Assembly: GCA_046754205.1 (NCBI GenBank)
Contig: JBHHVK010000002.1
Coordinates: 1-34,146, forward strand
Reading direction: 5' to 3'
Length of the DNA stretch: 34,146 nucleotides
Source: Thermodesulfobacteriota bacterium
GTDB lineage: Bacteria; Desulfobacterota; GWC2-55-46; JBHHVK01
The notes under the pieces are model-generated. The model did not search any database, was not told the DNA's origin, and saw nothing but the letters and a program-made list of their open reading frames with translations. Below, one piece after another: positions 947 to 33,020 of the stretch (its first letter is position 1; each line of letters opens with the position of its first letter). The position numbers and the translations under genes were made by a program.

Positions 947-950
947 GGGG

Positions 951-8004: not shown

Positions 8005-8028
8005 GGAATAGAAGGAGCGTAAGAGAAG

Positions 8029-8445: not shown

Positions 8446-8805
8446 ATGCCGAGGGTCAAAAGAGGCGTTCACGCCAAGAAGAAGAGAAAGAAGATTCTCA
8501 AGGCCGCCAAGGGCTACCGCGCCGGCAAATCGAAGCTCTACCGCATAGCCACCGAGGCCGTGGACAGGGCCGGCCAGTTCGCCTACCGGGACCGCAAGAA
8601 CAGGAAACGCGAGTTCAGAAGGCTCTGGATAGCGCGCATAAACGCCGCGGCGAGGGCCAATGACATTACCTACTCGAGGCTCGTCGAAGGGCTCACAAAG
8701 GCCGACGTCGCGGTGGACCGCAAGGTGCTCGCAGACCTCGCTGTGCGGGACCCCAAAGGCTTCACGAAGATAGTCGATATCGCAAGGACAACGCTCGCCG
8801 CATGA
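8446..8805 (+). CDS. rplT: 50S ribosomal protein L20
   Basis: [26 protein letters not shown]... begins at the ATG at 8446 behind an AAAGGAG RBS. The ORF-track start at 8404 adds 14 non-conserved residues. Confidence 0.95.
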
Positions 8806-9818: not shown

Positions 9819-9837
9819 ACCCCAAAGGCGTGTTCAG

Positions 9838-12255
9838 ATGCTCTTCAGCTACGACTGGCTCAGAGAATACATAGACGAGCTCCCCTCTCCAGGGGTCCTC
9901 TCCGAGCGCCTGACCATGACCGGCACCGAGGTGGAGAGCGTGGCAGGCGGGGCCGAGTCCCCCACGGGCGTCGTCACCGCAGAGGTCCTGTCCGTCGAAG
10001 CTCACCCCAACGCCGACCGCCTCTCCCTCTGCGAGGTCCGCACCGACACCGGGAGCCACTCCATAGTCTGCGGCGCGACGAACATGAAGCCCGGAGACCG
10101 CGTGGCCCTCGCCCTGCCCGGGGCGGTCCTCCCCGGGGGGCACAGGATAAAAAAGTCAAAGATACGCGGCGTAACCTCCGAGGGGATGATGTGCTCCGAG
10201 GTCGAGCTCGCCCTCGCCGACACCTCGGACGGCATTATGATACTCCCCGCCGACACGCCGCTCGGCGTGGACGTAAACGATGTGCTCGTCCGGGACGTCG
10301 TCCTCGAGGCGTCCGTCACCCCGAACCGCGCCGACCTCCTGAGCATACGCGGCATCGCCCGCGAGATAGCCGCCGTCGTCGGCGGGACCTTCAGGGACAG
10401 GTCCCCGGAGGTCGCCGAAGAGGGCCCCGACATAAAGGGCCTCGTGGACGTTGCGGTCGAGGACGCTGAGCGGTGCCCCAGGTACTCGGCCCGCGTCATA
10501 GAGGGCGTCAGGATCGCCCCCTCGCCCGAGCCCATCGTAAAGAGGCTCGAAGCCCTCGGCGTAAGGCCCGTAAACAACGTTGTGGACGTCACCAACTACG
10601 TCCTCCTCGGCCTCGGCCAGCCGCTGCACGCCTTCGACCTCGACAGGCTCGCCGGCCGCAGGATAGTCGTAAGGCCCGCGCGCGCCGGCGAGCGGATAGA
10701 GACCATCGACGGAAAGACCCGCGACCTGCCCGAAGGCGCCCTCGTCATAGCGGACTCCGCATCCCCCGTTGCCCTGGCCGGGGTCATGGGCGGCAAGGCC
10801 ACCGAGGTCGGCGACGGGACCACCGACGTGCTCATCGAGTCCGCCTGGTTCGAGCCTTCGGCCGTGCGCAGGAGCTCGAAGGAGGCCGCGCTGTCTACGG
10901 ATTCGTCCTACAGGTTCGAGCGCGGGGTCGACATAGAGGGGGTCACCCTCGCCCTCGACACGGCGGCCGCCATGATAACCGAAATAGCCGGCGGCCGCGT
11001 GGCAAGGGGCTCTATCGACGTCTACCCCGAGCCTAAGGTACCGGCCGCGATCGAGCTGGACCCGTCGAGGGTCGGGGCCCTGCTCGGAATAGAGCTCGAA
11101 GACGACGAGGTCCTGCGCATCCTCAAGGGCCTCGGCATAAAGACAAGGACGGCCCCGGGGCGCGGCGCCGAGAGCCTCATCGAGGCCGTCCCGCCATCCT
11201 ACAGGCTCGACATCACCGGAGAGGTGGACCTCATCGAAGAGGTGGCGCGGGTGGCCGGCTACGACAGGATCCCCGCCACGCTCCCCGCCACCGGGCTCGT
11301 CCCCGGCGCAAGGTCCGCCCATCACGAGGCGCGCGGTCTCATAAGAGACCTCCTCGCGGGCTCCGGCTTCTTCGAGGTCGTCAACTACAGCTTCATCTCC
11401 AGGGACCTCTACGCCGTGACGGCCCACGGAGTGGACGAAGGGGTCGCGATCCTCAACCCCCTCAGCGAGGATCAGGCGCTCCTGAGGGCGTCGCTCGTCC
11501 CTTCTCTCGTCGACAACCTCAGGAAAAACATCCAGAAGGGCAGCGACGACGTAAGGATATTCGAGCTCTCCACCGTCTTCATCCCGCGCCCGGAGCGCTC
11601 TGTTCCCCATGAGGGCTGGAGGGTGGCCGGGCTCCTCTACGGACGCAGGTGGGCGGAGGCGTGGAACATGCCCGCCGACCCGGTGGACTTCTTCGACGTC
11701 AAGGGCGCGGTCGAGTCCATAATCGACGTCCTCGGCCCCACAGGAGAGGTCGTCTTCGAGCCCCTCGGCGACGGCTCCGGCGGCGCCCTGCATCCGGGAA
11801 AGTCCGCGCGGGCGCTCGTTTCAGGCGCCGAGGTCGGCATACTCGGCGAGACACACCCGGACCTGGACGAGTCCTTCGGCCTGAGGGCCCCCGCTTACGT
11901 CTTCGAGCTCGACCTCGACATACTCCTCGATGTTTCGGGCAGAGAGAAGACCTACACCCGGCTTGCGAGGTTCCCGTCCTCGGCGAGGGACGTCGCCTTC
12001 GTGGTGGACGATTCCATCCCCTACGGGGAAATTCACCGCGCAATTACCGGTTTGGACACAAAACTTATTGAAACCATTGAACTGTTTGATGTATACTATG
12101 GTGGCTCCATCCCCGAGGGTAAAAGGAGCCTCGCCCTAAGGGTGGTTTGCAGGTCGCCCGAGAGGACGCTCAAACAGGCCGAGGTGGACAGGGTCTGCTC
12201 CAGGGTGGTAAAGACGCTCACCCGGAGGTTCGGCGCCGAGGTACGCGGCGAGTAG
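9838..12255 (+). CDS. pheT: Phenylalanyl-tRNA synthetase beta subunit
   Basis: 805 aa. N-terminus MLFSYDWLREYI, tRNA-binding domain, B3/4 and B5 domains, and a C-terminal FDVYYGGSIPEGKRSLA ferredoxin-fold anticodon-binding domain. Confidence 0.95.
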   Translation: MLFSYDWLREYIDELPSPGVLSERLTMTGTEVESVAGGAESPTGVVTAEVLSVEAHPNADRLSLCEVRTDTGSHSIVCGATNMKPGDRVALALPGAVLPGGHRIKKSKIRGVTSEGMMCSEVELALADTSDGIMILPADTPLGVDVNDVLVRDVVLEASVTPNRADLLSIRGIAREIAAVVGGTFRDRSPEVAEEGPDIKGLVDVAVEDAERCPRYSARVIEGVRIAPSPEPIVKRLEALGVRPVNNVVDVTNYVLLGLGQPLHAFDLDRLAGRRIVVRPARAGERIETIDGKTRDLPEGALVIADSASPVALAGVMGGKATEVGDGTTDVLIESAWFEPSAVRRSSKEAALSTDSSYRFERGVDIEGVTLALDTAAAMITEIAGGRVARGSIDVYPEPKVPAAIELDPSRVGALLGIELEDDEVLRILKGLGIKTRTAPGRGAESLIEAVPPSYRLDITGEVDLIEEVARVAGYDRIPATLPATGLVPGARSAHHEARGLIRDLLAGSGFFEVVNYSFISRDLYAVTAHGVDEGVAILNPLSEDQALLRASLVPSLVDNLRKNIQKGSDDVRIFELSTVFIPRPERSVPHEGWRVAGLLYGRRWAEAWNMPADPVDFFDVKGAVESIIDVLGPTGEVVFEPLGDGSGGALHPGKSARALVSGAEVGILGETHPDLDESFGLRAPAYVFELDLDILLDVSGREKTYTRLARFPSSARDVAFVVDDSIPYGEIHRAITGLDTKLIETIELFDVYYGGSIPEGKRSLALRVVCRSPERTLKQAEVDRVCSRVVKTLTRRFGAEVRGE

Positions 12256-19449: not shown

Positions 19450-19797
19450 TTGACCCCTGAACGGACAGTCCGGCAGATGATCATCGAGGCCCTCAGGGCC
19501 GGGATGATGACCGCCGTGGAAATCTCCGGCGCCGTCGGCATATCCGAGAAGGAGGTCTACGAGCACCTGCCGCACGTGGCCCGCTCGGTGGGGCACTCGG
19601 GGGACGGCGGCAAGGGCCGGGGGGGCCGGGGGGGCCGGGGGGGGCGGGGGCGCCTGAGGTTCGTCGTCGAACCCCCGCTCTGCGGCGGCTGCGGTTTTGC
19701 CTTCAGGAAGAGGGACCGCTTCAAGACCCCGGCGCGGTGCCCGCTCTGCCGATCGGGGCAGATAAGGGAGACCCGGTTCGGGATTATAGAGGAGTGA
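19450..19797 (+). CDS. HTH domain fused to a C-terminal Zn-ribbon (COG3357-like predicted regulator) with an internal RGG repeat
   Basis: IIEALRAGMMTAVEISGAVGISEKEVYEHLPHVARS, then GKGRGGRGGRGGRGR, then CGGCGFAF...ARCPLCRS (CxxC...CxxC). TTG start, with an alternative ATG at 19477. Confidence 0.65.
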   Translation: MTPERTVRQMIIEALRAGMMTAVEISGAVGISEKEVYEHLPHVARSVGHSGDGGKGRGGRGGRGGRGRLRFVVEPPLCGGCGFAFRKRDRFKTPARCPLCRSGQIRETRFGIIEE

Positions 19798-20804
19798 GTC
19801 CCCCCTTGCGCACAAGAGCCGTCTTTCATCCAATCCGCGGCGTCGGTCTCGTCCTCGCCCTCGTCCTCTTTTCGCTCGTCGCGCTCCAATGCCGGTCCGC
19901 GTCGGCGGCGGAGCGCCCTGCGCCCGCGCCCGGCCCGGCGCGCCCCCTTGAGCTCACCCTCTCAACGGGCATAAGGACGGACGACCTCGACTGGAGCATA
20001 GCCGGCAACACGGCCGGGGCAAACCCCAACATCCTCTCCGAGCTTACCTGGAGGGACGTCGAGAGCGTCTACCTCAAGGGCTCGGGCAGGGTCCACATCG
20101 CCGCGGGTTACTGGCTCAGGGGCTCGGTGGACTGGGGCTCCATCTACAGCGGTTCGAACCAGGACTCGGACTTCGCCGGAGACGACAGGACGCTCGAGTG
20201 GTCCCGCTCGGAAAACAACGCCGGCGATGGGAACCTCTGGGACCTCTCGGCGGCCCTCGAGTCTCCCGGCTGGAGGCCGGCGCCGTGGCTCACCGTCACG
20301 CCTCTCCTCGGCTTTTCCTACCACAGGCAGAACCTCTCCATAACCGACGGCCTCCAGACCGTCTCCAGGCCGTCGATCAACCCGAAGGTCGCCCCCCTGG
20401 GTCCTATAGCCGGTCTTGACAGCCGGTACTCGGCCTGGTGGTTCGGCCCCTGGAGCGGCGCGGAGGTCCGGCTCTCGGGCGGAGCGGTCTCCATTACGGG
20501 CTCCTTTGAGTACCACTATGCGTATTACAGGGCAGAGGCGGACTGGAACCTCAGAACGGACCTCGCCCACCCCGTGAGCTTCGAGCACACGGCCGAAGGC
20601 TACGGGCTTGTCTTTTCGGTCGGGGCGGACTATAATTTCACCAGCCGCCTTAGTGCGGGACTTGCGGCCGACGCGCACCACTGGCGCGCAACGGACGGCA
20701 TCGACAGGATTAACTCCGCCGTCGGCGGCTCGTCCGATACGCGCCTGAACGAGGTCAACTGGAGCTCTTACGCCGTCCTGGCCGGTATCACCTATACCTT
20801 CTGA
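19794..20804 (+). CDS. Outer-membrane beta-barrel protein with omptin-like sequence features
   Basis: Signal peptide ...GLVLALVLFSLVALQCRSASA. LSELTWRD, NQDSDF and LLGFSYHRQ segments line up with OmpT LSQLDWK, DQDWM and MAGYQESRY. Terminal ITYTF barrel signature. The start is uncertain: GTG 19794 overlaps the upstream stop as GTGA, and TTG 19806 is an alternative. Confidence 0.55.
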   Translation: MSPPLRTRAVFHPIRGVGLVLALVLFSLVALQCRSASAAERPAPAPGPARPLELTLSTGIRTDDLDWSIAGNTAGANPNILSELTWRDVESVYLKGSGRVHIAAGYWLRGSVDWGSIYSGSNQDSDFAGDDRTLEWSRSENNAGDGNLWDLSAALESPGWRPAPWLTVTPLLGFSYHRQNLSITDGLQTVSRPSINPKVAPLGPIAGLDSRYSAWWFGPWSGAEVRLSGGAVSITGSFEYHYAYYRAEADWNLRTDLAHPVSFEHTAEGYGLVFSVGADYNFTSRLSAGLAADAHHWRATDGIDRINSAVGGSSDTRLNEVNWSSYAVLAGITYTF

Positions 20805-20826
20805 GCCCGGACCGGGGAGATAAGCG

Positions 20827-21237
20827 ATGAGAAACTTCATATCACGGGGCGGTACCGCTCCGTTCGCCGCCGCAGTGGTCTTCTTCGTTATCCTTCTATT
20901 CCATCCCGCGGGCGCTTCGTCCGGGGGTTCCTTCACCCTCGACCCCGAGTCCGCCTCCTGCGTCGGGTGCCACGGCGCCGAGGCCGACCCTGCCTCCGGC
21001 GCTCCCGGTCACCCGGGACGCACCAGCCACCCCGTGGGCATGGACTACGCTGCAGCCGCGGCCCGCGACCGCTCGCTCGCGCCGCCCGCGGACCTCGACC
21101 CGAGGCTCGTGCTCGCCGATGGCAGGGTCGGCTGCGCGACCTGCCATCTGCCCTACTCGAAGGCGAGCCACGCCGGCCCCATGCTCGTCATCGACAACGC
21201 CGGCAGCCGCCTCTGCCTCGCCTGCCACAGGAAGTAG
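20827..21237 (+). CDS. Small secreted or membrane-anchored tri-haem c-type cytochrome
   Basis: N-terminal hydrophobic segment AAAVVFFVILLF. Three CXXCH motifs: CVGCH, CATCH and CLACH. 136 aa. Starts 23 nt after the barrel gene. Confidence 0.8.
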   Translation: MRNFISRGGTAPFAAAVVFFVILLFHPAGASSGGSFTLDPESASCVGCHGAEADPASGAPGHPGRTSHPVGMDYAAAAARDRSLAPPADLDPRLVLADGRVGCATCHLPYSKASHAGPMLVIDNAGSRLCLACHRK

Positions 21238-21264: not shown

Positions 21265-21294
21265 TTGACAATAGTCCTCGATATATACTATAAG
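21265..21294 (+). promoter_or_regulatory. Promoter of the riboswitch-controlled sulfur operon
   Basis: TTGACA (21265-21270), 18-bp spacer, TATAAG (21289-21294), about 30 nt before the riboswitch P1 helix. Confidence 0.55.
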
Positions 21295-21321: not shown

Positions 21322-21500
21322 CTTCTTATCGAGAGTGGCAGAGGGACTGGCCCGATGAAGCCACAGCAACCGGTCCGCCTCAGGGCGTGATGTCAGGTGC
21401 TAATTCCAGCAAGGCCGTGGGAGACGTCATGTACCGTGCCGGGCGTCGCAACCCGTACCCCCAGGGGGGCTCGGGTTTCCCAGGACTTGGAAGATAAGGA
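21322..21500 (+). promoter_or_regulatory. SAM-I (S-box) riboswitch aptamer
   Basis: CTTATC-GAGAG-TGGCAGAGGGACTGGCCCGATGAAGCCAC-AGCAACC...GGTGCTAATTCCAGCAAGG...GGAAGATAAGG. It matches the S-box consensus in P1, the P2 kink-turn, the GCAACC / GGTGCTAA junctions and the closing GATAAG. The P4 arm is unusually long. Confidence 0.9.
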
Positions 21501-21508
21501 AAGGTTAC

Positions 21509-21548
21509 CGCCTCTTCTTAGCTTCGGAAAATAAGAAGGGGCTTTTTT
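21509..21548 (+). terminator. Riboswitch expression-platform terminator
   Basis: CCTCTTCTTA (21511-21520) pairs with TAAGAAGGGG (21532-21541), followed by CTTTTTT. The 3' P1 strand GATAAGGAAAGG can alternatively pair with CCTCTTCTTA as an antiterminator. Confidence 0.8.
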
Positions 21549-21683
21549 AATGCCCTTTCCATCCCCCCGACCCTCAGGCCCCGCCTTGATAACGAAAAGC
21601 CCTTGAAAGACGTCATCCGTTAAAAAACGGCGCGAAGACCCGCGGGCCCCGTTCCGCCGGGCAAACGAAGAGGAGGAGAGTGT

Positions 21684-22931
21684 ATGAATTGCATGAAGGG
21701 GTTGAGGTGCAGGGAGTGCGGCAAGGAGTACCCGCACGAGGCCCTGCACGTCTGCGAGCTCTGTTTCGGCCCTCTCGAAGTCCACTACGACTACGATAGG
21801 ATAAAGGAGGTCCTCACCAGGGAGACCATCGAGTCGAGGCAGCCGAACATGTGGCGGTACAGGGAGCTGCTCCCCCTCGATGGAGACCCCTCCGTCGGGG
21901 GCCAGGTGGGGTTCACCCCTCTTATAAGGGCGAGAAACCTCGAAAAGGTCCTCGGGGTGCGCGAGCTCTACCTGAAGAACGACGCCGTCAACTACCCCAC
22001 GCTCTCCTTCAAGGACCGCGTCGTCTCCGTGGCCATATCCCGCGCCCGCGAGATGGGCTTTGACACCGTGGCCTGCGCGTCCACGGGAAACCTGGCCAAC
22101 TCCGTGGCGGCCAACGCCGCCGCCTGCGGGATGAAGAGCTACGTCTTCATCCCCTACGACCTCGAGCAGACCAAGATAACGGGCACGCTCGTCTACGGGG
22201 CCAAGGTCGTGGGCATCAAGGGCGCCTACGACGAGGTCAACCGCCTCTGCTCGGAGATAGCCGGAAAGTACGGCTGGGCCTTCGTCAACATAAACATACG
22301 CCCCTACTACGCCGAGGGCTCGAAGACCTTCGGCCACGAGATAGCCGAGCAGCTCGGCTGGAGGCTCCCGAAGCACGTGGTGGTGCCCATGGCCGGGGGC
22401 TCCCTCATAACCAAGATATGGAAGGCCTTCGAGGAGTTCAAGAAGCTCGGCCTGGTGGAGGACACCGGGACCAGCGTCTACGGGGCGCAGGCCGCCGGGT
22501 GCGCGCCCATCGTCACCGCCGTCAAGGAGGGCAGTGAGCTCATCCGCCCGGTCAAGGCCAGGACCATAGCCAAGTCGCTGGCCATAGGCAACCCCGCCGA
22601 CGGATACTACTCCGCAAAGACCATCCGCGAGAGCGGAGGCTGGGGCGAGGACGTCACCGACGCCGAGATAGTGGACGCCATGAAGATGCTCGCCGAGACC
22701 GAGGGCGTCTTCGCCGAGACCGCCGGGGGCGTGACCTTCGGAGTGGCCAAAAAACTCATCGAGCAGGGCCGCATCCCCACCGACGAGTCCATAGTGATAT
22801 CCATAACCGGAAACGGCCTCAAGACGCAGGAGGCCCTGAACGGCTCGATCGAGCCCCCGGTGGTCATAGACGCCAGGCTCGGGGAGTTCGACGCCCTGGT
22901 CAGGGCAGAGGAAAAAGAGCTCGCCCTTTGA
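21684..22931 (+). CDS. Threonine-synthase-family PLP enzyme with an N-terminal Zn-ribbon (candidate O-phosphohomoserine-dependent homocysteine synthase)
   Basis: CRECGKEY...CELCFGPL zinc ribbon. PLP-lysine motif PTLSFKDRVVS. ASTGNLANS and MAGGSL. GAGGAGGAGAG RBS. Sits behind a SAM riboswitch. Confidence 0.8.
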   Translation: MNCMKGLRCRECGKEYPHEALHVCELCFGPLEVHYDYDRIKEVLTRETIESRQPNMWRYRELLPLDGDPSVGGQVGFTPLIRARNLEKVLGVRELYLKNDAVNYPTLSFKDRVVSVAISRAREMGFDTVACASTGNLANSVAANAAACGMKSYVFIPYDLEQTKITGTLVYGAKVVGIKGAYDEVNRLCSEIAGKYGWAFVNINIRPYYAEGSKTFGHEIAEQLGWRLPKHVVVPMAGGSLITKIWKAFEEFKKLGLVEDTGTSVYGAQAAGCAPIVTAVKEGSELIRPVKARTIAKSLAIGNPADGYYSAKTIRESGGWGEDVTDAEIVDAMKMLAETEGVFAETAGGVTFGVAKKLIEQGRIPTDESIVISITGNGLKTQEALNGSIEPPVVIDARLGEFDALVRAEEKELAL

Positions 22932-23132: not shown

Positions 23133-24119
23133 ATGACGGACCACTTCATAGAGGACAAGAGGCACAAGGTCGACGTCGCCCTCGAAGGCGTAGGCCACGG
23201 CAAGGTGGACTTTGGCGACCTCAAGTCCGGCGGCTTCATAAAGCAGCGCCAGAAGGACCTCTTCACCGTGCGCCTCAGGTGCCCCGGCGGGAGGATGGAG
23301 ACTAAAAAGCTCGTTGAGATATCCAAGATAGCCGACAAGTACAGCAAAAAGGGGGTGGTGCACTTCAGCTACCGCCAGTCCCTCGAGATACTCTACGTCG
23401 ACTACAACGAGTTCAACAACATAGTCGCGGAGCTTGAAAAGATCGGCCAGAAGGTCGCCTCCTGCGGACCCAGGGTCCGCGTGCCCACGGCCTGCGGGGG
23501 CTGCGAGTACAACCCCAACGGGCTCATCGACACCCAGGCGCTCGCCGCGATGGTCGACGAGAAGTTCTTCGGCACGCCCACGCCCCACAAGTTCAAGACC
23601 TGCTTTTCAGGCTGCCCCATAGACTGCTCCCGGAGCAAGGAGATGGACCTCGGCTTCCAGGGCGTCGTCGAGCCCGAGTGGGACAAGCCGCTCTGCACGG
23701 GCTGCACCATCTGCGCGGAGGCCTGCAAGGAGGACGCCATAGAGAGCGACTCGGAGACGGGCATGCCCTACTTCGACCCGAAAAAATGCATCTACTGCGG
23801 CGACTGCATCCGCGCCTGCCCGACCGAGGCCTGGAAGGTCAAGAGGTATGGCCACACCGTAAGGATAGGCGGCAAGCACGGACGGCACCCCATGGAGTCG
23901 GTCGAGGTGGCCAACTTCATACCCGACGACAGGGTCGCCGCGGTAATAGAAAAGACCGTCGAGTGGTACAACGCCAACGGAGACCGCTTCGAGAGGATAG
24001 GCAACACCTTAAAGCGCGTCGGGCTCGACAAGTACATCGAGTTCATGGGTCCGCTGCTCGTCACCGAGCCCGCGGCGGAGTCGGGGGGCTATAAGAAACC
24101 GACCGAGAAGGCGGGTTGA
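23133..24119 (+). CDS. Small Dsr-like / assimilatory-type sulfite reductase (sirohaem-[4Fe-4S] domain with an inserted 2x[4Fe-4S] ferredoxin domain)
   Basis: Sirohaem-cluster Cys pattern TACGGCEY...CFSGCPIDC. Ferredoxin motifs CTGCTICAEAC and CIYCGDCIRACP. 328 aa. Confidence 0.7.
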   Translation: MTDHFIEDKRHKVDVALEGVGHGKVDFGDLKSGGFIKQRQKDLFTVRLRCPGGRMETKKLVEISKIADKYSKKGVVHFSYRQSLEILYVDYNEFNNIVAELEKIGQKVASCGPRVRVPTACGGCEYNPNGLIDTQALAAMVDEKFFGTPTPHKFKTCFSGCPIDCSRSKEMDLGFQGVVEPEWDKPLCTGCTICAEACKEDAIESDSETGMPYFDPKKCIYCGDCIRACPTEAWKVKRYGHTVRIGGKHGRHPMESVEVANFIPDDRVAAVIEKTVEWYNANGDRFERIGNTLKRVGLDKYIEFMGPLLVTEPAAESGGYKKPTEKAG

Positions 24120-24152: not shown

Positions 24153-24392
24153 ATGAGTGAAATCAAACCCGATGTCTCCCTCGACCTGCGGGGAGTGATG
24201 TGCCCCACGAACTTCGTCAAGGCAAAGCTGAAGTTAGAGATGATGGAAGAGGGCCAGGTCTTAGAGCTCGTCCTCGACAGCGGCGAGCCTATCGCGAACG
24301 TGCCCAAGTCCATAAAGGAGGAGGGGCACAGGGTCGTGGAGGTGAAGAGGGAGGACGACCACTTCCGCCTCAAGGTCCGCAAGGAGGCTTAG
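24153..24392 (+). CDS. TusA/SirA-family sulfur-carrier-like protein
   Basis: 79 aa. LDLRGVMCPTNFVKAKLKL holds the conserved active-site Cys-Pro of the TusA fold. Confidence 0.75.
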   Translation: MSEIKPDVSLDLRGVMCPTNFVKAKLKLEMMEEGQVLELVLDSGEPIANVPKSIKEEGHRVVEVKREDDHFRLKVRKEA

Positions 24393-24548
24393 GGGGGTAG
24401 GGGGTTTAGGGAGTGTAGGGGGCTTAGGGTGACGCTCTCCCCCCCCCGGCGGACGTGTCCGGCCTGTAAATGGGGCTCAGGGGGGCAGGGGGGCGAGGGG
24501 GGCGAGGCATGGGACAGCCATAGGTGGCGGGGGGGGCGAGGCAGGGGC
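24392..24548 (+). repeat. Two G-quadruplex-type tracts starting at the tusA-like stop codon
   Basis: TAGGGGGGTAGGGGGTTTAGGGAGTGTAGGGGGCTTAGGGTG (five TAGGG-type runs), then a C8 run, then GGGGCTCAGGGGGGCAGGGGGGCGAGGGGGGCGAGG...GGCGGGGGGGGCGAGGCAGGGG. Confidence 0.75.
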
Positions 24549-24567
24549 CGTAAGGCTCCCCTTTTTT
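24544..24567 (+). terminator. Weak intrinsic terminator or attenuator between the tusA-like and thiS-like genes
   Basis: GGGGCC-GTAA-GGCTCCCC, a 6-bp stem with one bulge, followed by TTTTTT. Confidence 0.35.
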
Positions 24568-24628
24568 ACCCCCTTTGCACAGACCGGGTTCAGGATTAAA
24601 AAAAGCGGATATATTCAGGAGGTGCGCG

Positions 24629-24910
24629 ATGTCAGTCAAGGTGAGGATACCCACACCGCTCAGGAAGATTACCAATAACTCCGATGAGGTAGCCGCCGAG
24701 GGGACGAACGTCGGGCAGGTTATAGAGGACCTCGAGAAGAACTACCCGGGCATCAAGGAGAGGATCTGCGAGGAGGACGGCAGGCTCAGGCGCTTCGTGA
24801 ACCTCTACCTCAACGACGAGGACATCAGGTTCATGAACAACCTCGATACCGAGCTCAAGGACGGCGACGAGCTTTCCATCATCCCAGCCATAGCCGGAGG
24901 GTCCCGGTGA
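24629..24910 (+). CDS. ThiS/MoaD-family ubiquitin-like sulfur carrier ending GG-Ser-Arg
   Basis: 93 aa from the ATG at 24629 behind an AGGAGG RBS. DGDELSIIPAIAGGSR* is the beta-grasp C-terminus, with a Gly-Gly followed by two extra residues. Confidence 0.8.
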   Translation: MSVKVRIPTPLRKITNNSDEVAAEGTNVGQVIEDLEKNYPGIKERICEEDGRLRRFVNLYLNDEDIRFMNNLDTELKDGDELSIIPAIAGGSR

Positions 24911-25143
24911 AGAAGAGGGTCTACCTTACATACCCGAAGGAGCAGGTGAAGGAACCGCTCCTCTACCAGTGCGGCAAGCTCTGCGGCGTGGCCTTCAACA
25001 TCAGGCAGGCGAGCGTGTCGGACGCGGTGGGGCTCGTGGCGCTCGAGCTCGAAGGGGAGCCCGAGGAGATAGACAGGGCCATCGACTTCTTTATCAGCAA
25101 GGGCGTCAAGGTCGAGCCCATAGAGCTCGATATCATCGAGTGA
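24907..25143 (+). CDS. Stand-alone NIL-domain protein (ferredoxin-like fold, as at the MetN C-terminus)
   Basis: GTGA start/stop overlap with the carrier gene. 78 aa. YLTYPKEQVKEPLLYQ...FNIRQASVS...GLVALELEG...FFISKGVKVEPI matches the NIL-domain pattern. Confidence 0.65.
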   Translation: MKKRVYLTYPKEQVKEPLLYQCGKLCGVAFNIRQASVSDAVGLVALELEGEPEEIDRAIDFFISKGVKVEPIELDIIE

Positions 25144-25216: not shown

Positions 25217-25244
25217 ACCCCCGTCGCCCGGCGGGGGTTTTTTT
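25217..25244 (+). terminator. Intrinsic terminator ending the riboswitch-led unit
   Basis: ACCCCCG-TCGCCCGG-CGGGGGT followed by a T7 run. Confidence 0.75.
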
Positions 25245-25355: not shown

Positions 25356-25382
25356 TTGACAAAAGAACTAAGGTATTATAGT
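25356..25382 (+). promoter_or_regulatory. Candidate promoter of the cysM-JAMM-moeB unit
   Basis: TTGACA (25356-25361) with TATAGT (25377-25382) at a short 15-bp spacing. An AT-rich region with inverted repeat CCTTAAAAA-N8-TTTTTAAGG (25299-25324) lies upstream. Confidence 0.4.
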
Positions 25383-25551
25383 TTAAAAGTTGAGAAGTCT
25401 ACTAAGGTATTCTGCGGCGGCCTCGCCCGTTTCCGCCCGCCCTTTTCCGGATGGGCGCGCTTCAGGAAGAGGGCCCTATCCGGCCGCCGTGCAGGAGTCT
25501 GGTCGGCGTGTCCCTTCGGCAGGTCACGTAACCTTCGAGAGGTAATGGTTT

Positions 25552-26707: not shown

Positions 26708-27151
26708 ATGATATTAGGCTTTGGCAAGAGCGCCATACACGTACCGAGGGCCGTATATGACGAGATTATAAACCACGCCAGGGACGCCTATCCCGACGAG
26801 TGCTGTGGTTTTCTCGTAGGCAAGGCCATAAGGGACAAGCGGGTCTGGCAGGTGGAGCGCGGCACGAACGCCAACACCGAGAGGTCCAGGGACAGGTACG
26901 TAATAGACCCGAAGGAGTATCACCTGACCGACAAGGTCGCCAGGACCCAGGGCCTCGACATCCTCGGCTTCTACCACTCCCACCCGGACCACCCCGACCG
27001 TCCCAGCGAGTTCGACCGCGCCGAGGGGCACCCGGGGTTCTCATACATCATTGTCTCCGTCCAGGGCGGAAAGACCGTCTCCGCCAGGAGTTGGATCTTC
27101 GACAAGGATGACGAGCCCTTCAGGGAAGAGAAGATAAAGATAGTCGACTGA
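26708..27151 (+). CDS. JAMM/MPN+ metallopeptidase (Mec+/HcyD/QbsD-like)
   Basis: ECCGFLVG Glu motif and the JAMM signature HSHPDHPDRPSEFD (H-x-H-x7-S-x2-D). 147 aa. Confidence 0.88.
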   Translation: MILGFGKSAIHVPRAVYDEIINHARDAYPDECCGFLVGKAIRDKRVWQVERGTNANTERSRDRYVIDPKEYHLTDKVARTQGLDILGFYHSHPDHPDRPSEFDRAEGHPGFSYIIVSVQGGKTVSARSWIFDKDDEPFREEKIKIVD

Positions 27152-27248: not shown

Positions 27249-28061
27249 ATGGACTTTACGGAAGAACAGATAGAGCGATACTCCAGGCACATCATACTCC
27301 CCGAGGTGGGCGGCCGTGGACAGGCCAAGCTCCTCAAGAGCCGGGTCTTCGTCCTCGGGGCCGGGGGGCTCGGCAGCCCGAGCCTCTTTTATCTCGCCGC
27401 CGCCGGCGTGGGCTCCATAGGCCTGGCCGACGGCGATTCCGTGGACGTCAGCAACCTCCAGCGCCAGATAATCCACACAAACTCGGATGTGGGCGCCCCC
27501 AAGGTCCACTCCGCCAGGGAATCCATCGAGGCCCTCAACCCTGACGTCAAGGTCGAGGCCTTCCACGGGCGGCTCACCGAGGAGAACATCCGCGAGGTGA
27601 TACGCCCATACGACGTAGTCCTCGACGGGTCGGACAACTTCCCCACCAGGTTCCTCGTCAACGACGCCTGCTTCTTCGAGCAAAAGACCCTCGTCTCGGG
27701 CTCCATGTTCAGGTTCGACGGCCAGGTCTCGGTCTTCAAGCCCCACGACGGCGGCCCCTGCTACAGGTGCCTCTATCCGGAGCCGCCCCCGAAGGGGCTC
27801 GTGCCGAGCTGCCAGGAGGCCGGGGTCCTCGGGGCGCTCGCCGGGGTAATCGGCGTCCTCCAGGCCGTGGAGGCCATTAAGGAGATACTCGGCATAGGAG
27901 AGTCGCTCGCCGGAAACCTCCTGATATTCGACGCCCTCAAGATGGGCTTCAGGAAGGTCAAGGTCAGGCGCGACCCCGAGTGCGCGCTCTGCGGGGGCAG
28001 CCCCACGATTACGGAACTCCGCGAGTACGAGCAGGAGGCCTGCGAGTGGAGCGCCGGCTGA
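27249..28061 (+). CDS. MoeB/ThiF-family E1-like adenylyltransferase (no rhodanese domain)
   Basis: RYSRHIILPEVG, the GAGGLGS nucleotide loop, SNLQRQ, and Zn-site pairs CYRC...CALC. 270 aa. Confidence 0.88.
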   Translation: MDFTEEQIERYSRHIILPEVGGRGQAKLLKSRVFVLGAGGLGSPSLFYLAAAGVGSIGLADGDSVDVSNLQRQIIHTNSDVGAPKVHSARESIEALNPDVKVEAFHGRLTEENIREVIRPYDVVLDGSDNFPTRFLVNDACFFEQKTLVSGSMFRFDGQVSVFKPHDGGPCYRCLYPEPPPKGLVPSCQEAGVLGALAGVIGVLQAVEAIKEILGIGESLAGNLLIFDALKMGFRKVKVRRDPECALCGGSPTITELREYEQEACEWSAG

Positions 28062-28101
28062 CGCCCGGAGCGTGCATCGCCCCTTCATAAAGGTTGCCGG
28101 C

Positions 28102-29313
28102 ATGAAGAACAACTACCTCGATAACCCCGGGGCCCTGAAGATAGACCTCATGCTCCAGGGCATCAGGATAGAGGACCCGGTGCTCAAGGCCTGGGCCTGC
28201 GGCGCCGACGGCATGGACATACTCTTGCCCATGGGCACGCTGGTCAACGTCCCCTGCAGCGACTACGTGGCCTCGACGTCGCCGTACGTCATAAAGAAGT
28301 CCGGCGATGGGCACGCCATAACCTTCGACGGGGCCGGCGAGGTGCCCGTGAGGTTCCTGCCCAAGCCCGAGTTCTACTACCGGAAGACCTCCACGGGGGT
28401 TCCCTTCTCGCGCATCGCCTCGGTCCACGGCAGCTACACCGTCATTACCCCGTCTCCGAGGTGCGAGTTCTTCAACCGGAAGGTCGAGTGCAAGTACTGC
28501 GCCGGCAACTTCGACGTCATCGGCGCGGACGAGACGGTCTTCTCCGTGGACGAGGTGCTCGAAACGGTCGCCGCGGTCCTGAAGGAGAAGGTCTCGGAGA
28601 TAATATACCTCTCGGTGGGGTTCAGCGAGGGGGACGACGGGGGTGTGGAGTTCCTCCGGCCCTACGTAAGGGCAATAAAGAAGCACTTCAACGTTCTGGT
28701 GGCCGTGGAGGCGCTGCCGCCGAAGGACAACCGCTGGATAGACAGGACCTACGCCATGGGGGCCGACTCGGTCCTCTACAACCTCGAGATATACGACCGC
28801 GAGCTCTTCGGGCTCATCTGCCCGGGCAGGGCCGAGCTCATAGGCTGGGAGAGGTACGCGGAGGCCCTCGGCTACGCCGCCGGCGTATTCCCCAACGGCA
28901 CCGTCGCCTCTCACCTCATCGTCGGGCTCGAGCCCCCGGGCTCCACTGTCCAGGGTATAGACTTTCTCGTCTCCATGGGGGTGGTGCCGATACTTCCGGT
29001 CATCAGGCCCACGAGGGACAGGTCGTACCACATTCACCCGCTCACTGCGGACGTCATAATCCCCGTATACAGGCACCTGTACAAGGCGCTCAAGGGGAGC
29101 GCGGTGAACTTCCGCTGGGTCCGCGACATCAGCATGGTCACCACCCCGGTGGAGGGAAGGCTCCTCGTGGACGAGGGCGGCCAGGGCGACAAGGCGACCC
29201 TCATGGAGAGTTTTTACGGGACGAGGCTCGGGCTCAAGGCCGCCTGGGGCCTTTCGACGATCAGGAGAAAGCTAAGGGTTAAGGAGGTCAAGGACCCCTC
29301 TGAGAACTCGTAA
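28102..29313 (+). CDS. Unassigned protein with a C-x8-C-x2-C motif (possible non-canonical radical SAM TIM-barrel enzyme)
   Basis: PRCEFFNRKVECKYCAGN cysteine triad, followed by IIYLSVGFSEGDDGG, which resembles a GGE-like motif. About 400 aa. The alternative GTG start at 28072 follows the moeB-like stop by 10 nt. Confidence 0.4.
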   Translation: MKNNYLDNPGALKIDLMLQGIRIEDPVLKAWACGADGMDILLPMGTLVNVPCSDYVASTSPYVIKKSGDGHAITFDGAGEVPVRFLPKPEFYYRKTSTGVPFSRIASVHGSYTVITPSPRCEFFNRKVECKYCAGNFDVIGADETVFSVDEVLETVAAVLKEKVSEIIYLSVGFSEGDDGGVEFLRPYVRAIKKHFNVLVAVEALPPKDNRWIDRTYAMGADSVLYNLEIYDRELFGLICPGRAELIGWERYAEALGYAAGVFPNGTVASHLIVGLEPPGSTVQGIDFLVSMGVVPILPVIRPTRDRSYHIHPLTADVIIPVYRHLYKALKGSAVNFRWVRDISMVTTPVEGRLLVDEGGQGDKATLMESFYGTRLGLKAAWGLSTIRRKLRVKEVKDPSENS

Positions 29314-29348: not shown

Positions 29349-30779
29349 TTGAGCGTTGAGATAGACACAAGGCCCATATGGGTTATCCTTCTGCAGAGGT
29401 CCCTGAGGCCGGTCTTTTTCCTGGCCATGGCGCTGATCTTCTGGCTCGTCCTGGCCGTGCCGACCCCGGCCGGGTTGACGCCCGAGGGACAGAAGGCCAT
29501 AGCCGTCTTCGTCCTCTGCCTGGTGCTGTGGGTATCGGGCGCCGTGCCGCTCGCGATTACGTCGCTCTTCGCCATAGTGCTGGTGCCGGTGCTGGGGATA
29601 CTCCCCCACAAGGAGACCCTCGGGCTCTTCGGCAACGAGGCGGTCTTCTTCATACTCGGCGCGTTCATACTCGCCGGGGCGGTGATGCAGACGGGGCTCA
29701 GCAACCGCATCGCGCTCACCATACTCGACAGGTCGGGGTACTCGCCGAAAAGGCTCCTCATAAGCATCTTCCTCCTGGCGGCGTTCCTCTCCTTCTTCAT
29801 GAGCGAGCACGCCGTGGCGGCCATGCTCTTCCCCATAGTGCTCGAGATATCGAAGAGCCTGGGCCTCAGGCCGGGAAGGTCGAACTACGGCAAGCTCCTC
29901 TTCTTCGCGCTGGCCTGGGGGTGCGTAATAGGCGGCGTGGCGACATTCCTCGGCGGGGCCCGGGTGCCGCTCGCCATGGGCATCCTGAGCGAGACCACGG
30001 GCGAGACCATAGGTTTCCTCGACTACTCCATCGCCGTCTTCCCCGTGGTGGTGATACTCCTCGTCGTGGGGTATCTCCTTCTGACGAGGTTCTTCCCCGT
30101 GGACATAGACGGGGTGGACAGGGCGCGGGAAGTGCTCGACGCAAGGGTCAGGGCCCTCGGCAAGGTCTCCTTCAAGGAGTACTCCGTGGGCCTGCTCCTC
30201 GTCGCCACCATCCTCTGCTGGATACTCTTCGGCGGCAGGGTCGGGCTATCCACCATCGCGCTCTCCTCGGTGGTGGTGCTCTTCGTCTTCAGGCTCGTCC
30301 GGTGGAGGGACATAGAGGAGTACGTCAACTGGGGGATAATCCTCATGTACGGCGGGGCCATCATCCTGGGCACCGCCCTCGATAGATCCGGGGCGGCCGA
30401 GTGGCTCGTCGGCTCGGTCCTCGGCTCCTGGGCCACGGGGCCGATGCTGGTCATCGGGTTCATCTCGCTCCTCACGCTCCTTCTGACCGAGGCCATGAGC
30501 AACGCCGCGGTCATAGCCGTGCTCCTGCCCGTGGCCATGGGGCTGGCGGGAAAGCTCTCCATGGACCCTACGGTCATGACCTATGCCGTCGCCGTGCCTG
30601 CGGGACTTGCCTTCATGTTCCCCATGAGCACGCCGGCTAACGCGCTTGCGATATCGTCGAGCTACGTAAGCGTCCGCGACCTCATAAAGGGTGGCTTCAT
30701 CATGTTCATCACGGCATGGGTGGCCTTCAACCTGGTGGCCGCCTTCTGGTGGCCCCTCATAGGGCAGGGATACGGGTAG
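29349..30779 (+). CDS. SLC13/DASS-family anion permease (candidate sulfate or sulfur-oxyanion importer)
   Basis: 476 aa, polytopic membrane protein with duplicated hairpin motifs (FMSEHA...; EAMSNAAVIAVLLPV...; MSTPANA). TTG start. Confidence 0.7.
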   Translation: MSVEIDTRPIWVILLQRSLRPVFFLAMALIFWLVLAVPTPAGLTPEGQKAIAVFVLCLVLWVSGAVPLAITSLFAIVLVPVLGILPHKETLGLFGNEAVFFILGAFILAGAVMQTGLSNRIALTILDRSGYSPKRLLISIFLLAAFLSFFMSEHAVAAMLFPIVLEISKSLGLRPGRSNYGKLLFFALAWGCVIGGVATFLGGARVPLAMGILSETTGETIGFLDYSIAVFPVVVILLVVGYLLLTRFFPVDIDGVDRAREVLDARVRALGKVSFKEYSVGLLLVATILCWILFGGRVGLSTIALSSVVVLFVFRLVRWRDIEEYVNWGIILMYGGAIILGTALDRSGAAEWLVGSVLGSWATGPMLVIGFISLLTLLLTEAMSNAAVIAVLLPVAMGLAGKLSMDPTVMTYAVAVPAGLAFMFPMSTPANALAISSSYVSVRDLIKGGFIMFITAWVAFNLVAAFWWPLIGQGYG

Positions 30780-30803: not shown

Positions 30804-31271
30804 ATGAAAAATGTGCTCTTAGTCTTATCCACTTCGAGGACCTCCGAAGAGGTCCTCGGCTACGCCGTGGAAAAGGCCGCCGAGGCGGGCGTTAAGCTCG
30901 TGGCCCTCTACATCCTCGAAAAGGAGCTCGCCGAGGAGGTCTTCGACGCCTTTACGGACGTGGGCTTCATAGGCGACAGGCCATCGGTGCAGATAACCGA
31001 GTCGCTCATGAAGGAGTACCGCCAGAGGGGCTACGAGGAGCTCGGCCGTCTCCAGATAAGGACCATGGAGGCGGGCGTGGACTTCGACCCCCTGATGGAG
31101 GAGGGCGACTACGTCACCACCGTGCTCGACGCCATGGAGGGCCGGGACATAGGGCTCGCCGTCCTCATAAAGCGCAGGAAGAGGAGCTTTTTCAAGTACT
31201 TTTCAAAGTCCCTCGCCGAGGAGGTCAAGGAAAAGGCCCCCTGCGAGGTCGTCATATTCGAGGAAGAATGA
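30804..31271 (+). CDS. Universal stress protein-like (adenine-nucleotide alpha-hydrolase fold)
   Basis: MKNVLLVLSTSRTSEEVLGYAVEKA...KLVALYIL...APCEVVIFEE. 155 aa. Confidence 0.5.
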   Translation: MKNVLLVLSTSRTSEEVLGYAVEKAAEAGVKLVALYILEKELAEEVFDAFTDVGFIGDRPSVQITESLMKEYRQRGYEELGRLQIRTMEAGVDFDPLMEEGDYVTTVLDAMEGRDIGLAVLIKRRKRSFFKYFSKSLAEEVKEKAPCEVVIFEEE

Positions 31272-31293: not shown

Positions 31294-31992
31294 ATGATAA
31301 GCGTTAAGGTCTGGACCGCCGAAGAGCTCGGCAAGGTGAACGATGAACTGGAGGGAAGCCCCCCCCAGGACGTGCTCCGCTGGGTCGTGGATAACTTCGC
31401 TCGCGAGGACTTCGCGCTCGCCTGCAGCTTCGGCGAGCCGGTCCTCGTGGACATGCTCGTCAAGATAAAGCCCGACGCCCGCATATTCTCTCTCGACACC
31501 GGGCTCCACTTCGCCGAGACCCTGGAGCTCAAGGACGAGATAGAGCGCAAGTACGGCATCAGGATAGAGATGTACAGGCCGAAGCTGACGCTCGATGAGA
31601 TGGAAAGGGAGTACGGTCCCGAGCTCTGGAAGCGTAATCCCGACGAGTGCTGCAGGATCCGCAAGGTCGAGCCCTTGAAAGAGGTCCTCTCCGGGCTCAA
31701 GGCCTGGATTACCGGCATCCGCAGGGACCAGTCCCCCACGAGGAAAAACGCCCCGGTGGTGGGCATCGACCCGAAGCACGGCCTCGTGAAGGTCAACCCG
31801 CTGGTCAACTGGACGTCGCGCGACGTCTGGGAGTACCTCGAGCGCAACGGCGTGCCCTACAACAGGCTCCTCGACCAGGCCTTCGCCTCCGTCGGGTGCG
31901 AGCCCTGCACCAGGCCGATAATCCCCGGCGAGGACGAGAGGGCGGGCCGCTGGGATGGTTTTGCGAAGACCGAGTGCGGGCTCCACAAATAA
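31294..31992 (+). CDS. cysH: Adenylylsulfate (APS)-type phosphoadenosine phosphosulfate reductase family enzyme
   Basis: ACSFG...SLDTG PP-loop-type motifs. The Cys pairs DECCRIRK and CEPC are typical of [4Fe-4S] APS reductases. C-terminal catalytic ECGLH. Confidence 0.88.
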   Translation: MISVKVWTAEELGKVNDELEGSPPQDVLRWVVDNFAREDFALACSFGEPVLVDMLVKIKPDARIFSLDTGLHFAETLELKDEIERKYGIRIEMYRPKLTLDEMEREYGPELWKRNPDECCRIRKVEPLKEVLSGLKAWITGIRRDQSPTRKNAPVVGIDPKHGLVKVNPLVNWTSRDVWEYLERNGVPYNRLLDQAFASVGCEPCTRPIIPGEDERAGRWDGFAKTECGLHK

Positions 31993-32162: not shown

Positions 32163-33020
32163 GTGGCCGAAGGAACCGTCAAGGGGGGCGAGGGGGGGGG
32201 CGAGGGGGGGGGCGGGGGGTTGTCAGACGGCCTCGTCGGCGAGCTTTCCGCGCTCGCCGACGCCGCCGGAAGGGCGATACTCGAGATATACTCAGGGGCC
32301 GACTTCGGCACCACCTACAAGGACGACCGGAGCCCGCTGACCATGGCCGACGAGGCCTCAAACAGGGTCATCATCGCCGGGCTCGCCGACATCGCCCCGG
32401 GGATACCCGTCCTCTCCGAGGAGTCCGGGCAGGTCCCCTACGGCCGGAGAAGGGACTGGGAGAGGTTCTTCCTCGTCGACCCGCTCGACGGCACGAAGGA
32501 GTTCATCAAGCGTAACGGCGAGTTCACCGTCAATATCGCCCTCGTGGAAGGGGGCCGGCCCGTCGTCGGGGTGGTCCACTGCCCGGCTCTCGGGGTGACC
32601 TACTCGGGGGTTGCGGGCTCGGGCGCGAAGAAGGCCTCGAAAGGGGGTAGTATCGCGATAAGGGCCGGGGGCCCCGCTGGCGGCGCGCTCAAGGTCGTGG
32701 CCTCGAGGTCCCACAGGGGCGAGGCCACGGACAGGTTCGTCGAAAGGCTCCGCGCCGAGGGCCGCCAGGTCGAGTTCGTGGGCATGGGGAGCTCCTTGAA
32801 GCTCTGCCTCGTAGCCGAGGGGGCCGCCCACCTCTACCCGAGGTTCGGCCCCACCATGGAGTGGGATACCGCGGCGGCCCAGTGCGTGGTCGAGGCCGCG
32901 GGCGGCGCCGTCACCGACCTTGACGGGGCCCCGCTGGTGTACAACAAGGAGGACCTCTTAAACCCGTACTTCATGGTCGTGGGCGACCCGGCCTTCACAT
33001 GGCAACGGTACATCTACTGA
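32163..33020 (+). CDS. cysQ: 3'(2'),5'-bisphosphate nucleotidase
   Basis: SEESG, VDPLDGTKEF and WDTAAAQCVVEAAGG inositol-monophosphatase-family motifs. GTG 32163 has a GGGAGAGAGAG RBS but gives a Gly/Glu-rich N-terminus encoded by a G-run tract. TTG 32220 is an alternative start. Confidence 0.85.
   Translation: MAEGTVKGGEGGGEGGGGGLSDGLVGELSALADAAGRAILEIYSGADFGTTYKDDRSPLTMADEASNRVIIAGLADIAPGIPVLSEESGQVPYGRRRDWERFFLVDPLDGTKEFIKRNGEFTVNIALVEGGRPVVGVVHCPALGVTYSGVAGSGAKKASKGGSIAIRAGGPAGGALKVVASRSHRGEATDRFVERLRAEGRQVEFVGMGSSLKLCLVAEGAAHLYPRFGPTMEWDTAAAQCVVEAAGGAVTDLDGAPLVYNKEDLLNPYFMVVGDPAFTWQRYIY

Follow-up and report, generated by a model that had tools for sequence, protein, structure and literature searches.

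Contig JBHHVK010000002.1 of a Thermodesulfobacteriota bacterium (GenBank assembly GCA_046754205.1) contains, on the forward strand, an S-adenosylmethionine (SAM) riboswitch followed by an open reading frame (ORF), 21684-22931, whose 415-residue product belongs to the pyridoxal phosphate (PLP) enzymes of the threonine synthase (ThrC) family. The term window is used here for the whole analysed stretch, the first 34,146 nucleotides of the contig. In our judgement the ORF very probably encodes a MetM-type homocysteine synthase, which would use O-phosphohomoserine as substrate and a protein-bound thiocarboxylate as sulfur donor, and would make homocysteine as its product. The pathway as such is already known (Hasebe et al. 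2024), the locus adds a further member to it. The observations from which we argue concern the RNA elements of the leader, the domain content of the genes, the separation of the enzyme's clade from ThrC, the gene linkage and the coexistence of ThrC paralogs. The leader and the enzyme gene are composed as follows.

21265 to 21294, + strand: promoter-like site, putative -35 TTGACA (21265-21270), 18-nt spacer and putative -10 TATAAG (21289-21294), read by eye
21323 to 21500, + strand: SAM-I (S-box) aptamer, found with RF00162 and with our own covariance model, 3' end corrected by folding and alignment
21490 to 21525, + strand: predicted anti-terminator hairpin, 21490-21505 pairing with 21510-25 (fold of 21485-21530, -15 kcal/mol)
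21511 to 21548, + strand: intrinsic terminator, 10-bp stem CCUCUUCUUA (21511-21520) / UAAGAAGGGG (21532-21541), then C and U6
21684 to 22931, + strand: MetM-type homocysteine synthase candidate, 415 aa, ATG start after GAGGAGGAG, ThrC-fold PLP enzyme with Schiff-base Lys110

SAM-I (RF00162) was the sole Rfam riboswitch in the window (21323-21430, + strand, 60.7 bits with a gathering threshold of 44.4, E-value 6.9e-12), and a purpose-built covariance model gave 72 bits on the same aptamer. In the cmscan alignment four of the eight P1 pairs were non-standard. Folding and a three-way alignment with two related loci, L001 and L003, yielded a different P1, in which UUCUUAUC (21323-21330) pairs with GAUAAGGA (21493-21500) at all eight positions, and on this basis the Rfam 3' end of the aptamer at 21430 was rejected in favour of 21500. 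P4 is formed by 21410-16 and 21483-89, and its tip carries an insertion of about 66 nt (about 21417-21482), which explains why the hits obtained with Rfam and with our own model stop at 21430-21431 with a poor P1. At the same site L003 has an insertion of about 50 nt and L001 has none. All features of SAM-I membership are present (score above gathering, P1-P4 junction, terminator/anti-terminator platform), the P4 insertion being the sole variation. The anti-terminator reuses the 3' strand of P1 and the 5' half of the terminator, and is mutually exclusive with both P1 and the terminator. The terminator hairpin and its T-run occur also in L001 and L003, with near-identical sequence in L003 and diverged sequence in L001. 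Judged from the sequence, the leader has the layout of a classical S-box OFF switch, in which SAM would promote formation of P1 and thereby of the terminator. The promoter scan did not flag the site at 21265-21294, whose -10 hexamer has a final G.

An earlier note on this DNA, made from the letters alone, had described a SAM riboswitch and a terminator in front of a 415-residue ThrC-family enzyme with a CxxC...CxxC zinc ribbon, and this description proved to be correct. Its statement that the RNA elements directly precede the gene holds in the sense that there is no ORF in between, but the wording is loose, since the terminator and the start codon are separated by about 135 nt. The zinc ribbon, C9-x2-C12...C24-x2-C27, was invariant in a 12-sequence family alignment and was modelled at pLDDT 87-95. 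We considered it as a marker of MetM and rejected it, because the protein P0265 combines the ribbon with the canonical ThrC signature; the gene of P0265 has homoserine dehydrogenase, aspartate kinase and GHMP kinase genes as neighbours. In the MetM-like protein of M. aeruginosa three of the four ribbon cysteines are lost.

By domain match and by fold the enzyme belongs to the ThrC group. It matched the PALP family (PF00291) with 4e-70, its SFK110DR segment aligned with Lys61 of Thermus ThrC, and its AF2 model (pLDDT 88.6) had a TM-score of 0.86 to the ThrC structure 2zsj, CapA2 (9k3c) being also a structural neighbour. The ThrCs in the PDB were 34-38% identical to it (157-190 bits). In a library of 1.8 billion proteins the best 150 representatives all scored above 253 bits, and an N-terminal extension was common to most of the full-length ones.

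The sequences around the active site separate the enzyme and its relatives from canonical ThrC. The PLP-lysine motif is PTGSFK61DRGM in canonical ThrC and PT[LHF]SFKDRVV in the clade of the window enzyme, the STGN loop is S84TGNT88 versus STGNL, the phosphate loop is N154S155VNPxR160xEGQKT versus N-I-N-x-R-P-Y-Y-A-EG-S-KT (pattern N-x-N-x-R-P-Y-Y-x-EG[SA]KT), and the glycine-rich loop is PVGN188AGN versus PMAGGSL. In Thermus numbering the substitutions are G64V, M65V, T88L, S155N with a one-residue insertion, N157R, R160Y, Q164S and N188G. The positions of T88, S155, R160 and N188 are taken in the window enzyme by L137, N204, Y209 and G238, and that of N157 by R206; these replacements are conserved clade-wide. 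We take T88, N154, S155, R160 and N188 to be the residues by which Thermus ThrC contacts the phosphate of the substrate. In ThrC the retained phosphate serves as the base for the addition of water. Provided that these contact roles are correctly assigned, threonine synthesis would lose its defining step in the remodelled site. The active-site comparison that the earlier note had called for thus ended with presumed ThrC phosphate contacts replaced (T88L, S155N, R160Y, N188G).

To see how far the signature extends we used 85 related loci, i.e. the best 80 of at least 600 matching stretches in species-representative genomes, and five loci found earlier. SFKDRVV was present in 77 of the 85 relatives, SYKDRVV in three more, and STGNL in 83; these two motifs, SFKDRVV and STGNL, had played no part in the selection of the loci. 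In a neighbour-joining tree the signature-bearing proteins formed one clade, apart from the ThrCs of the PDB and from the other zinc-ribbon subfamilies. Hidden Markov models (HMMs) gave the same separation: the window enzyme scored 725 bits with the clade HMM, built without its close relatives, and 255 bits with the ThrC HMM, whereas for Thermus ThrC the corresponding values were 231 and 558 bits. The claim that the enzyme is not a canonical ThrC, for which phylogeny had been named as a check, was therefore borne out. Two proteins illustrate the surroundings of the clade. P0191 falls outside, its gene adjoining an amino-acid kinase gene and a second PALP gene; P0135, on a divergent branch, bears the signature, and its gene adjoins a methyltransferase gene. 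At neither of these two loci were sulfur genes or a riboswitch found.

The best 80 loci encode proteins 57-80% identical to the window protein and come from at least ten phyla (Thermodesulfobacteriota, Planctomycetota, Verrucomicrobiota, Nitrospirota, Nitrospinota, Cyanobacteria, Acidobacteriota, Chloroflexota, Actinomycetota and others); none of the 80 was from Streptomyces. In 80 of the 85 loci the enzyme gene has a ThiS-family (ThiS/CysO-type) gene nearby, on its own strand. Other neighbours are NIL-domain genes (38 loci), E1 genes (33), JAMM genes (19) and CysM-type matches (31, a few of which are canonical thrC). This linkage agrees with the involvement of a carrier foreseen in the earlier note, as does the window itself, which has genes for a JAMM protease, an E1 enzyme, CysM and sulfite reductase.

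Riboswitch control is also a recurrent property of the family. A covariance model made from 15 leaders was run on the related loci and the window, altogether 1.24 Mb, and detected 36 SAM-I elements, all on the coding strand and 5' of the enzyme gene, one of them 5' of a preceding E1 gene. The distance from the end of the aptamer to the start of the gene had a median of 125 nt. SAM-I was found upstream in 35 of the 85 related loci and nowhere else in the 1.24 Mb; there was none in the true-ThrC locus L006, nor in L007 or L008. The riboswitch-bearing loci belong to Thermodesulfobacteriota, Planctomycetota, Verrucomicrobiota, Acidobacteriota, Chloroflexota, Sumerlaeota, Micromonosporaceae and others, the Cyanobacteria and Nitrospirota loci of the survey were without a riboswitch. 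Searching for the SAM-I core with a regular expression was also tried and dropped; it recovered only 21 of the 85 loci and missed one Rfam-confirmed hit.

Several loci contain both a member of the clade and genes of the threonine branch. Five of them, L041, L032, L025, L070 and L074, include a canonical thrC (450-495 bits to Thermus ThrC). In L041 (Thermodesulfovibrio metagenome-assembled genome (MAG), 148-6032) the enzyme gene, the carrier, NIL, thrC (TIGR00260, 333 bits), HomK (TIGR02535, 578 bits) and aspartate kinase genes follow each other, and more generally Nitrospirota MAGs have the MetM-like gene, carrier, NIL, canonical thrC, the non-orthologous homoserine kinase HomK and aspartate kinase in one string. 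L042 (Acidobacteriota MAG, 7733-10597) consists of SAM-I, enzyme, carrier and thrB (TIGR00191, 241 bits). HomK makes O-phosphohomoserine (GapMind 2026 preprint, 10.1101/2024.10.14.618325). The link to O-phosphohomoserine, postulated earlier from the ThrC homology, is in this way reflected in the gene strings themselves, by HomK in one and by ThrB in the other. Paralogy, linkage to a carrier, supply of O-phosphohomoserine and control by SAM, taken together, indicate that the enzyme is a paralog that coexists with ThrC. The canonical thrC genes beside the homologue in five relatives, and the presence of both paralogs in M. aeruginosa, remove the objection that the gene might be the sole thrC homologue, but for the relatives only; in the window we found no second thrC.

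The genes and other elements that follow the enzyme gene in the window are listed below.

23133 to 24119, + strand: small siroheme-type sulfite reductase with a 2x[4Fe-4S] ferredoxin insert (PF01077, PF03460, Fer4)
24153 to 24392, + strand: TusA-family sulfur-transfer protein (PF01206, 7.5e-21)
24544 to 24569, + strand: terminator-like hairpin and T-run 3' of tusA, an analogous hairpin and T-run being present in L003
24629 to 24910, + strand: CysO/MetO-type sulfur carrier of the ThiS/MoaD fold, 93 aa (PF02597, 2e-19)
24907 to 25143, + strand: NIL-domain protein, 78 aa (PF09383, 1.9e-15), its start overlapping the carrier stop by 4 nt
25217 to 25244, + strand: putative terminator-like hairpin and T-run 3' of the NIL gene, read from the sequence
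25356 to 25411, + strand: promoter region 5' of cysM, TTGACA and two ACTAAGGTATT copies (25367-77 and 25401-11), conserved in L001 and L003
25552 to 26532, + strand: CysM/CysK-type cysteine synthase (TIGR01136 cysKM, 355 bits, cut-off 344; the PDB matches are cysteine synthases)
26708 to 27151, + strand: JAMM/MPN+ metalloprotease, Mec/HcyD-like (PF14464, 2.3e-27; NF041370 desampylase, 88 bits, below cut-off)
27249 to 28061, + strand: ThiF/MoeB-type E1 adenylyltransferase (PF00899, 2e-83; NF004281 MoeB, 319.5 bits, cut-off 266)
28072 to 29313, + strand: variant radical SAM protein (NF045502, 183 bits), the first of the downstream sulfur-assimilation genes
29349 to 30779, + strand: DASS anion symporter, same group
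30804 to 31271, + strand: Usp, same group
31294 to 31992, + strand: (P)APS reductase CysH, same group
32163 to 33020, + strand: CysQ, same group

The gene order is shared with L001 (CP129479.1, a complete Thermodesulfobacteriota genome, enzyme 79% identical) and with L003 (86%), and both have the riboswitch. The best PDB match of the sulfite reductase was the C-terminal half (residues 329-615) of the F420-dependent sulfite reductase (Fsr) 7np8, with an E-value of 4e-44. The hairpin at 24544-24569 is probably the end of the riboswitch-controlled transcript, as far as can be told from its sequence. The spacer between tusA and the carrier gene (24390-24545, + strand) has, before the hairpin, dense G-tracts (GGGGG to GGGGGGGG, repeated); the spacer is not conserved in L001 or L003.

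The carrier had M. tuberculosis CysO (3dwg_C) as its best PDB match (E-value 9e-25), and its start at ATG 24629 is backed by the 93-aa gene calls in L001 and L003. It ends with ...AIAGG-SR, so two residues would need to be trimmed to expose the Gly-Gly terminus. The NIL protein appears to be closely associated with it. Carrier and NIL are separate genes in 29 loci (the window and 28 others), with the 4-nt overlap in the window, L001 and L003, and they are fused in one ORF in nine loci (L011 at 9158-9787, L012, L014, L015, L017, L027, L030, L031 and L035), where ...AIAGG is followed by a linker of about 2 to 30 residues and then by NIL. The fusions imply that JAMM must release the carrier, and that NIL is functionally tied to it. 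No published function of this combination is known to us.

Further downstream, the 11-nt unit ACTAAGGTATT in front of cysM occurs in two exact copies 34 nt apart, with 0.06 expected by chance, and looks like a candidate operator. The leader of about 140 nt 3' of the cysM promoter had no Rfam match, and no second riboswitch was found ahead of the carrier or cysM genes at E-values up to 1. The true start codon of cysM may be further downstream. The variant radical SAM gene is located between the E1 and DASS genes also in L001 and L003, and has matches in L011, L013 and L015. On the other side of the riboswitch, 19450-21237 encodes three proteins, a PF0610-like one with a helix-turn-helix (HTH) and a zinc ribbon, an outer-membrane protein of the Pom family, and a small CXXCH cytochrome. 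L001 and L003 share the first two of these genes in syntenic position; in L003 the place of the cytochrome gene is taken by an uncharacterised gene of 139 aa. The PF0610-like protein could be a local regulator.

The closest described counterpart of the enzyme is MetM of Streptomyces albulus (Hasebe et al. 2024, Appl Environ Microbiol 90:e01247-24), which, according to the accounts given in citing papers (PMC12172450; 10.1101/2024.10.14.618325; 10.64898/2026.09.15.751699), is a ThrC homologue that converts O-phosphohomoserine and thiocarboxylated MetO to homocysteine, Mec and MoeZ being accessory enzymes. One of these papers mentions a SAM riboswitch upstream of S. albulus metM (PMC12172450). 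In the GapMind 2026 preprint the pathway is composed of MetO, Mec, MoeZ and MetM, and MetM is said to be frequently misannotated as threonine synthase (10.1101/2024.10.14.618325). The M. aeruginosa protein designated 'thrC (metM)' (thrC_1 / BH695_RS11850) is 51.6% identical to S. albulus MetM, and its gene adjoins a MetO-like gene (PMC12172450). The window protein shares 59% identity with this protein over 381 residues without gaps, and only 34% with the canonical ThrC of M. aeruginosa, which has both paralogs; the 'thrC (metM)' protein bears the full clade signature. A Micromonosporaceae homologue in the same clade, with SAM-I directly upstream, is 52% identical to the window protein by the library search and 49-50% in the family alignments. 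By context and by these indirect sequence links, membership of the window enzyme in the MetM family appears well supported. The suggestion of a homocysteine synthase made in the earlier note is thus supported, but it is not new, because the proposed reaction is that of the published MetM/MetO pathway, which the note had mentioned only by naming 'MetM-like' enzymes as a comparison set.

It must be noted that some observations weigh against this assignment. The carrier gene lies 1.7 kb downstream of the enzyme gene, on the same strand but behind a terminator-like hairpin, and is possibly outside the control of the riboswitch. S. albulus MetM was compared via proxies (the M. aeruginosa and Micromonosporaceae proteins), which makes the link of orthology an indirect one. 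The enzyme passes the cut-offs of the thrC equivalog models of NCBIfam, TIGR00260 (277.8 bits, cut-off 167.1) and NF006050 (309.5 bits, cut-off 303). Finally, the M. aeruginosa member of the clade, described as a 'moonlighting threonine synthase', was reported to have threonine synthase activity, with O-phosphohomoserine as substrate, and threonine deaminase activity, and its induction or overexpression was not accompanied by a rise in methionine (PMC12172450).

The position of the carrier gene is an argument for a variant of our interpretation, which we regard as unlikely: the enzyme would convert O-phosphohomoserine to homocysteine, but with free sulfide delivered by the co-transcribed Fsr-like reductase, and the carrier, JAMM, E1 and CysM would serve only cysteine synthesis. 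The enzyme gene of the window is co-transcribed with those of sulfite reductase and TusA, the carrier gene is beyond the hairpin, and the arrangement of CysM, JAMM and E1 genes 3' of the carrier resembles that of the CysO-CysM-Mec cluster of M. tuberculosis. It is difficult to reconcile this variant with the carrier gene near the enzyme gene in 80 of the 85 loci, many of which (the cyanobacterial loci, L016, L018, L005) are without CysM, and with the S. albulus enzyme, which uses the thiocarboxylate of MetO as far as the citing papers report.

The equivalog scores and the M. aeruginosa data raise the question whether the enzyme is a genuine threonine synthase, tied to SAM to balance the O-phosphohomoserine branch point. 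The ThrC fold would agree with this, and plants are known to couple threonine synthase to SAM. Nevertheless, we find this explanation very improbable. With an OFF switch, high SAM would lower the level of ThrC, which is the opposite of the situation in plants. Five relatives have a canonical thrC next to the gene, and both paralogs are present in M. aeruginosa; the presumed phosphate contacts are replaced, the linkage to a sulfur carrier is nearly universal, and the two HMM scores of the enzyme differ by 470 bits. The equivalog models themselves do not separate the MetM-like clade from canonical ThrC: MetM-like proteins score 236-337 bits on TIGR00260, and NF006050 (PRK08197), which we considered as a possible hidden MetM model, was rejected as such, because MetM-like, canonical and third-subfamily proteins all score 259-309 bits on it. 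The M. aeruginosa assay is weak evidence against a MetM function, because the Vmax was very low (0.018 umol/mg/min), Na2S was the only sulfur donor tried, the thiocarboxylated carrier thus being left out, and an unidentified product appeared near the methionine peak (PMC12172450). The ThrC activity of that protein may be a side activity, assayed without the real co-substrate.

We give similarly little credence to a ThrC-fold enzyme for some other sulfur replacement (beta-replacement on O-phosphoserine of the cysteine or cysteate type, or reaction with another homoserine ester): the ThrC fold has been recruited for cysteate synthesis, with TIGR03844 aligning over its full length and CapA2 as a structural neighbour, sulfite-handling genes are co-transcribed, and the changes at the phosphate site might point to another leaving group, but TIGR03844 gives only 62 bits with a cut-off of 325, cysteine is already covered by the separate CysM, the neighbours found for the enzyme gene in relatives included homoserine kinase genes and none of the serine pathway, and SAM-I control points to methionine.

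For the MetM-type homocysteine synthase we propose the following mechanism. The enzyme would eliminate phosphate from O-phospho-L-homoserine, and a sulfur nucleophile would attack C-gamma, instead of the attack of water at C-beta that leads to threonine. The likeliest nucleophile is the C-terminal thiocarboxylate of the carrier encoded by 24629-24910. By analogy with the CysO/CysM/Mec+ system, the carrier-homocysteine adduct would rearrange, and JAMM would release the product. The carrier would be made with its GG-SR tail, in some relatives as a carrier-NIL fusion, would be trimmed by the JAMM protease (26708-27151) and adenylated by the E1 enzyme (27249-28061). Sulfate, taken up through the DASS transporter, would be the source of its sulfur, with CysH, the Fsr-like reductase (23133-24119) and possibly TusA acting on the way. 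CysM probably draws on the same carrier for the synthesis of cysteine.

SAM-I would control the transcript of the metM-like, sulfite reductase and tusA genes by termination. When SAM is abundant it would stabilise P1, the 5' half of the terminator would be set free, and the synthesis of homocysteine would stop; such an OFF switch fits an enzyme of the methionine pathway. A more comprehensive scheme, which we put forward only tentatively and with more doubt than conviction, is that one carrier feeds both CysM and the MetM-type enzyme, that NIL is an unrecognised component of the system, and that the riboswitch gates sulfite reduction together with the synthase, and hence the supply of sulfur. 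The NIL domain could be a cleavable pro-domain, or a methionine or sulfur sensor that gates processing by JAMM or loading of the carrier.

The results have a consequence for annotation. NCBIfam release 20 has no model for the MetM-like clade, and as its members pass the thrC equivalog cut-off, they are misannotated systematically. Every named database homologue of the window protein was labelled 'threonine synthase', just as the earlier note had anticipated of automated annotation. Because of this misannotation, metabolic reconstructions for these organisms will list a second threonine synthase that is not real, and methionine synthesis will seem incomplete. A practical classifier to distinguish MetM-type enzymes from ThrC is available in the signature residues together with the clade HMM. 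The Nitrospirota relatives, in which the enzyme gene, thrC and homK adjoin on one strand, seem to be good subjects for studying how O-phosphohomoserine is partitioned.

It is instructive to compare the locus with known systems. With canonical ThrC (TIGR00260; 2zsj, 1uim, 6cgq, 2d1f) the enzyme shares the fold, the PLP lysine, the STGN loop and probably the substrate, but it belongs to a separate clade, has an extra zinc ribbon, and its gene is in the context of sulfur genes instead of hom/thrB. The CysO-CysM-Mec+ system of M. tuberculosis is similar in that CysO (3dwg) is the best PDB match of the window carrier, in the presence of JAMM, E1 and a CysM-type enzyme, and in the logic of a reaction between a protein thiocarboxylate and a phosphorylated amino acid. 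The window enzyme differs from CysM by its ThrC fold and by the proposed gamma-replacement on O-phosphohomoserine, as opposed to beta-replacement on O-phosphoserine. The HcyS-HcyD-HcyF-MetY route of Wolinella succinogenes also has a carrier extension trimmed by a JAMM protease, an E1 enzyme, a sulfite reductase and homocysteine as product; however, MetY is a fold type I enzyme acting on O-acetylhomoserine, whereas the window enzyme, a ThrC homologue, is of fold type II and has O-phosphohomoserine as its probable substrate. In the DUF39 and NIL-ferredoxin pathway of methanogens and Desulfovibrio (Rauch et al. 2014; Price et al. 2018) NIL is likewise tied to homocysteine synthesis in anaerobes, but that route starts at aspartate semialdehyde, and in the window there is no DUF39, and NIL is without ferredoxin and is coupled to a ubiquitin-like carrier.

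The closest similarity is to the MetM/MetO system of S. albulus, with which the locus shares a ThrC-homologous PLP enzyme, a SAM riboswitch, a ThiS/MoaD carrier, a JAMM protease (Mec) and a MoeZ/MoeB-type E1, as well as the proposed reaction of O-phosphohomoserine and carrier thiocarboxylate to homocysteine and the usual label of threonine synthase. Our results go slightly beyond the published description by the breadth of the family and its residue signature, by thrC and homK alongside the gene in Nitrospirota, by a riboswitch placed, in this lineage, also over an Fsr-like reductase and TusA, and by the coupling of carrier and NIL. The window differs from S. albulus in phylum, the closest named relatives of its enzyme being from MAGs of Thermodesulfobacteriota/Deltaproteobacteria. 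Its carrier gene is not adjacent to the enzyme gene, the genes for the Fsr-like reductase and TusA intervene and share the riboswitch, a NIL protein is coupled to the carrier, and the whole set is strung together with CysM and the genes of sulfate assimilation.

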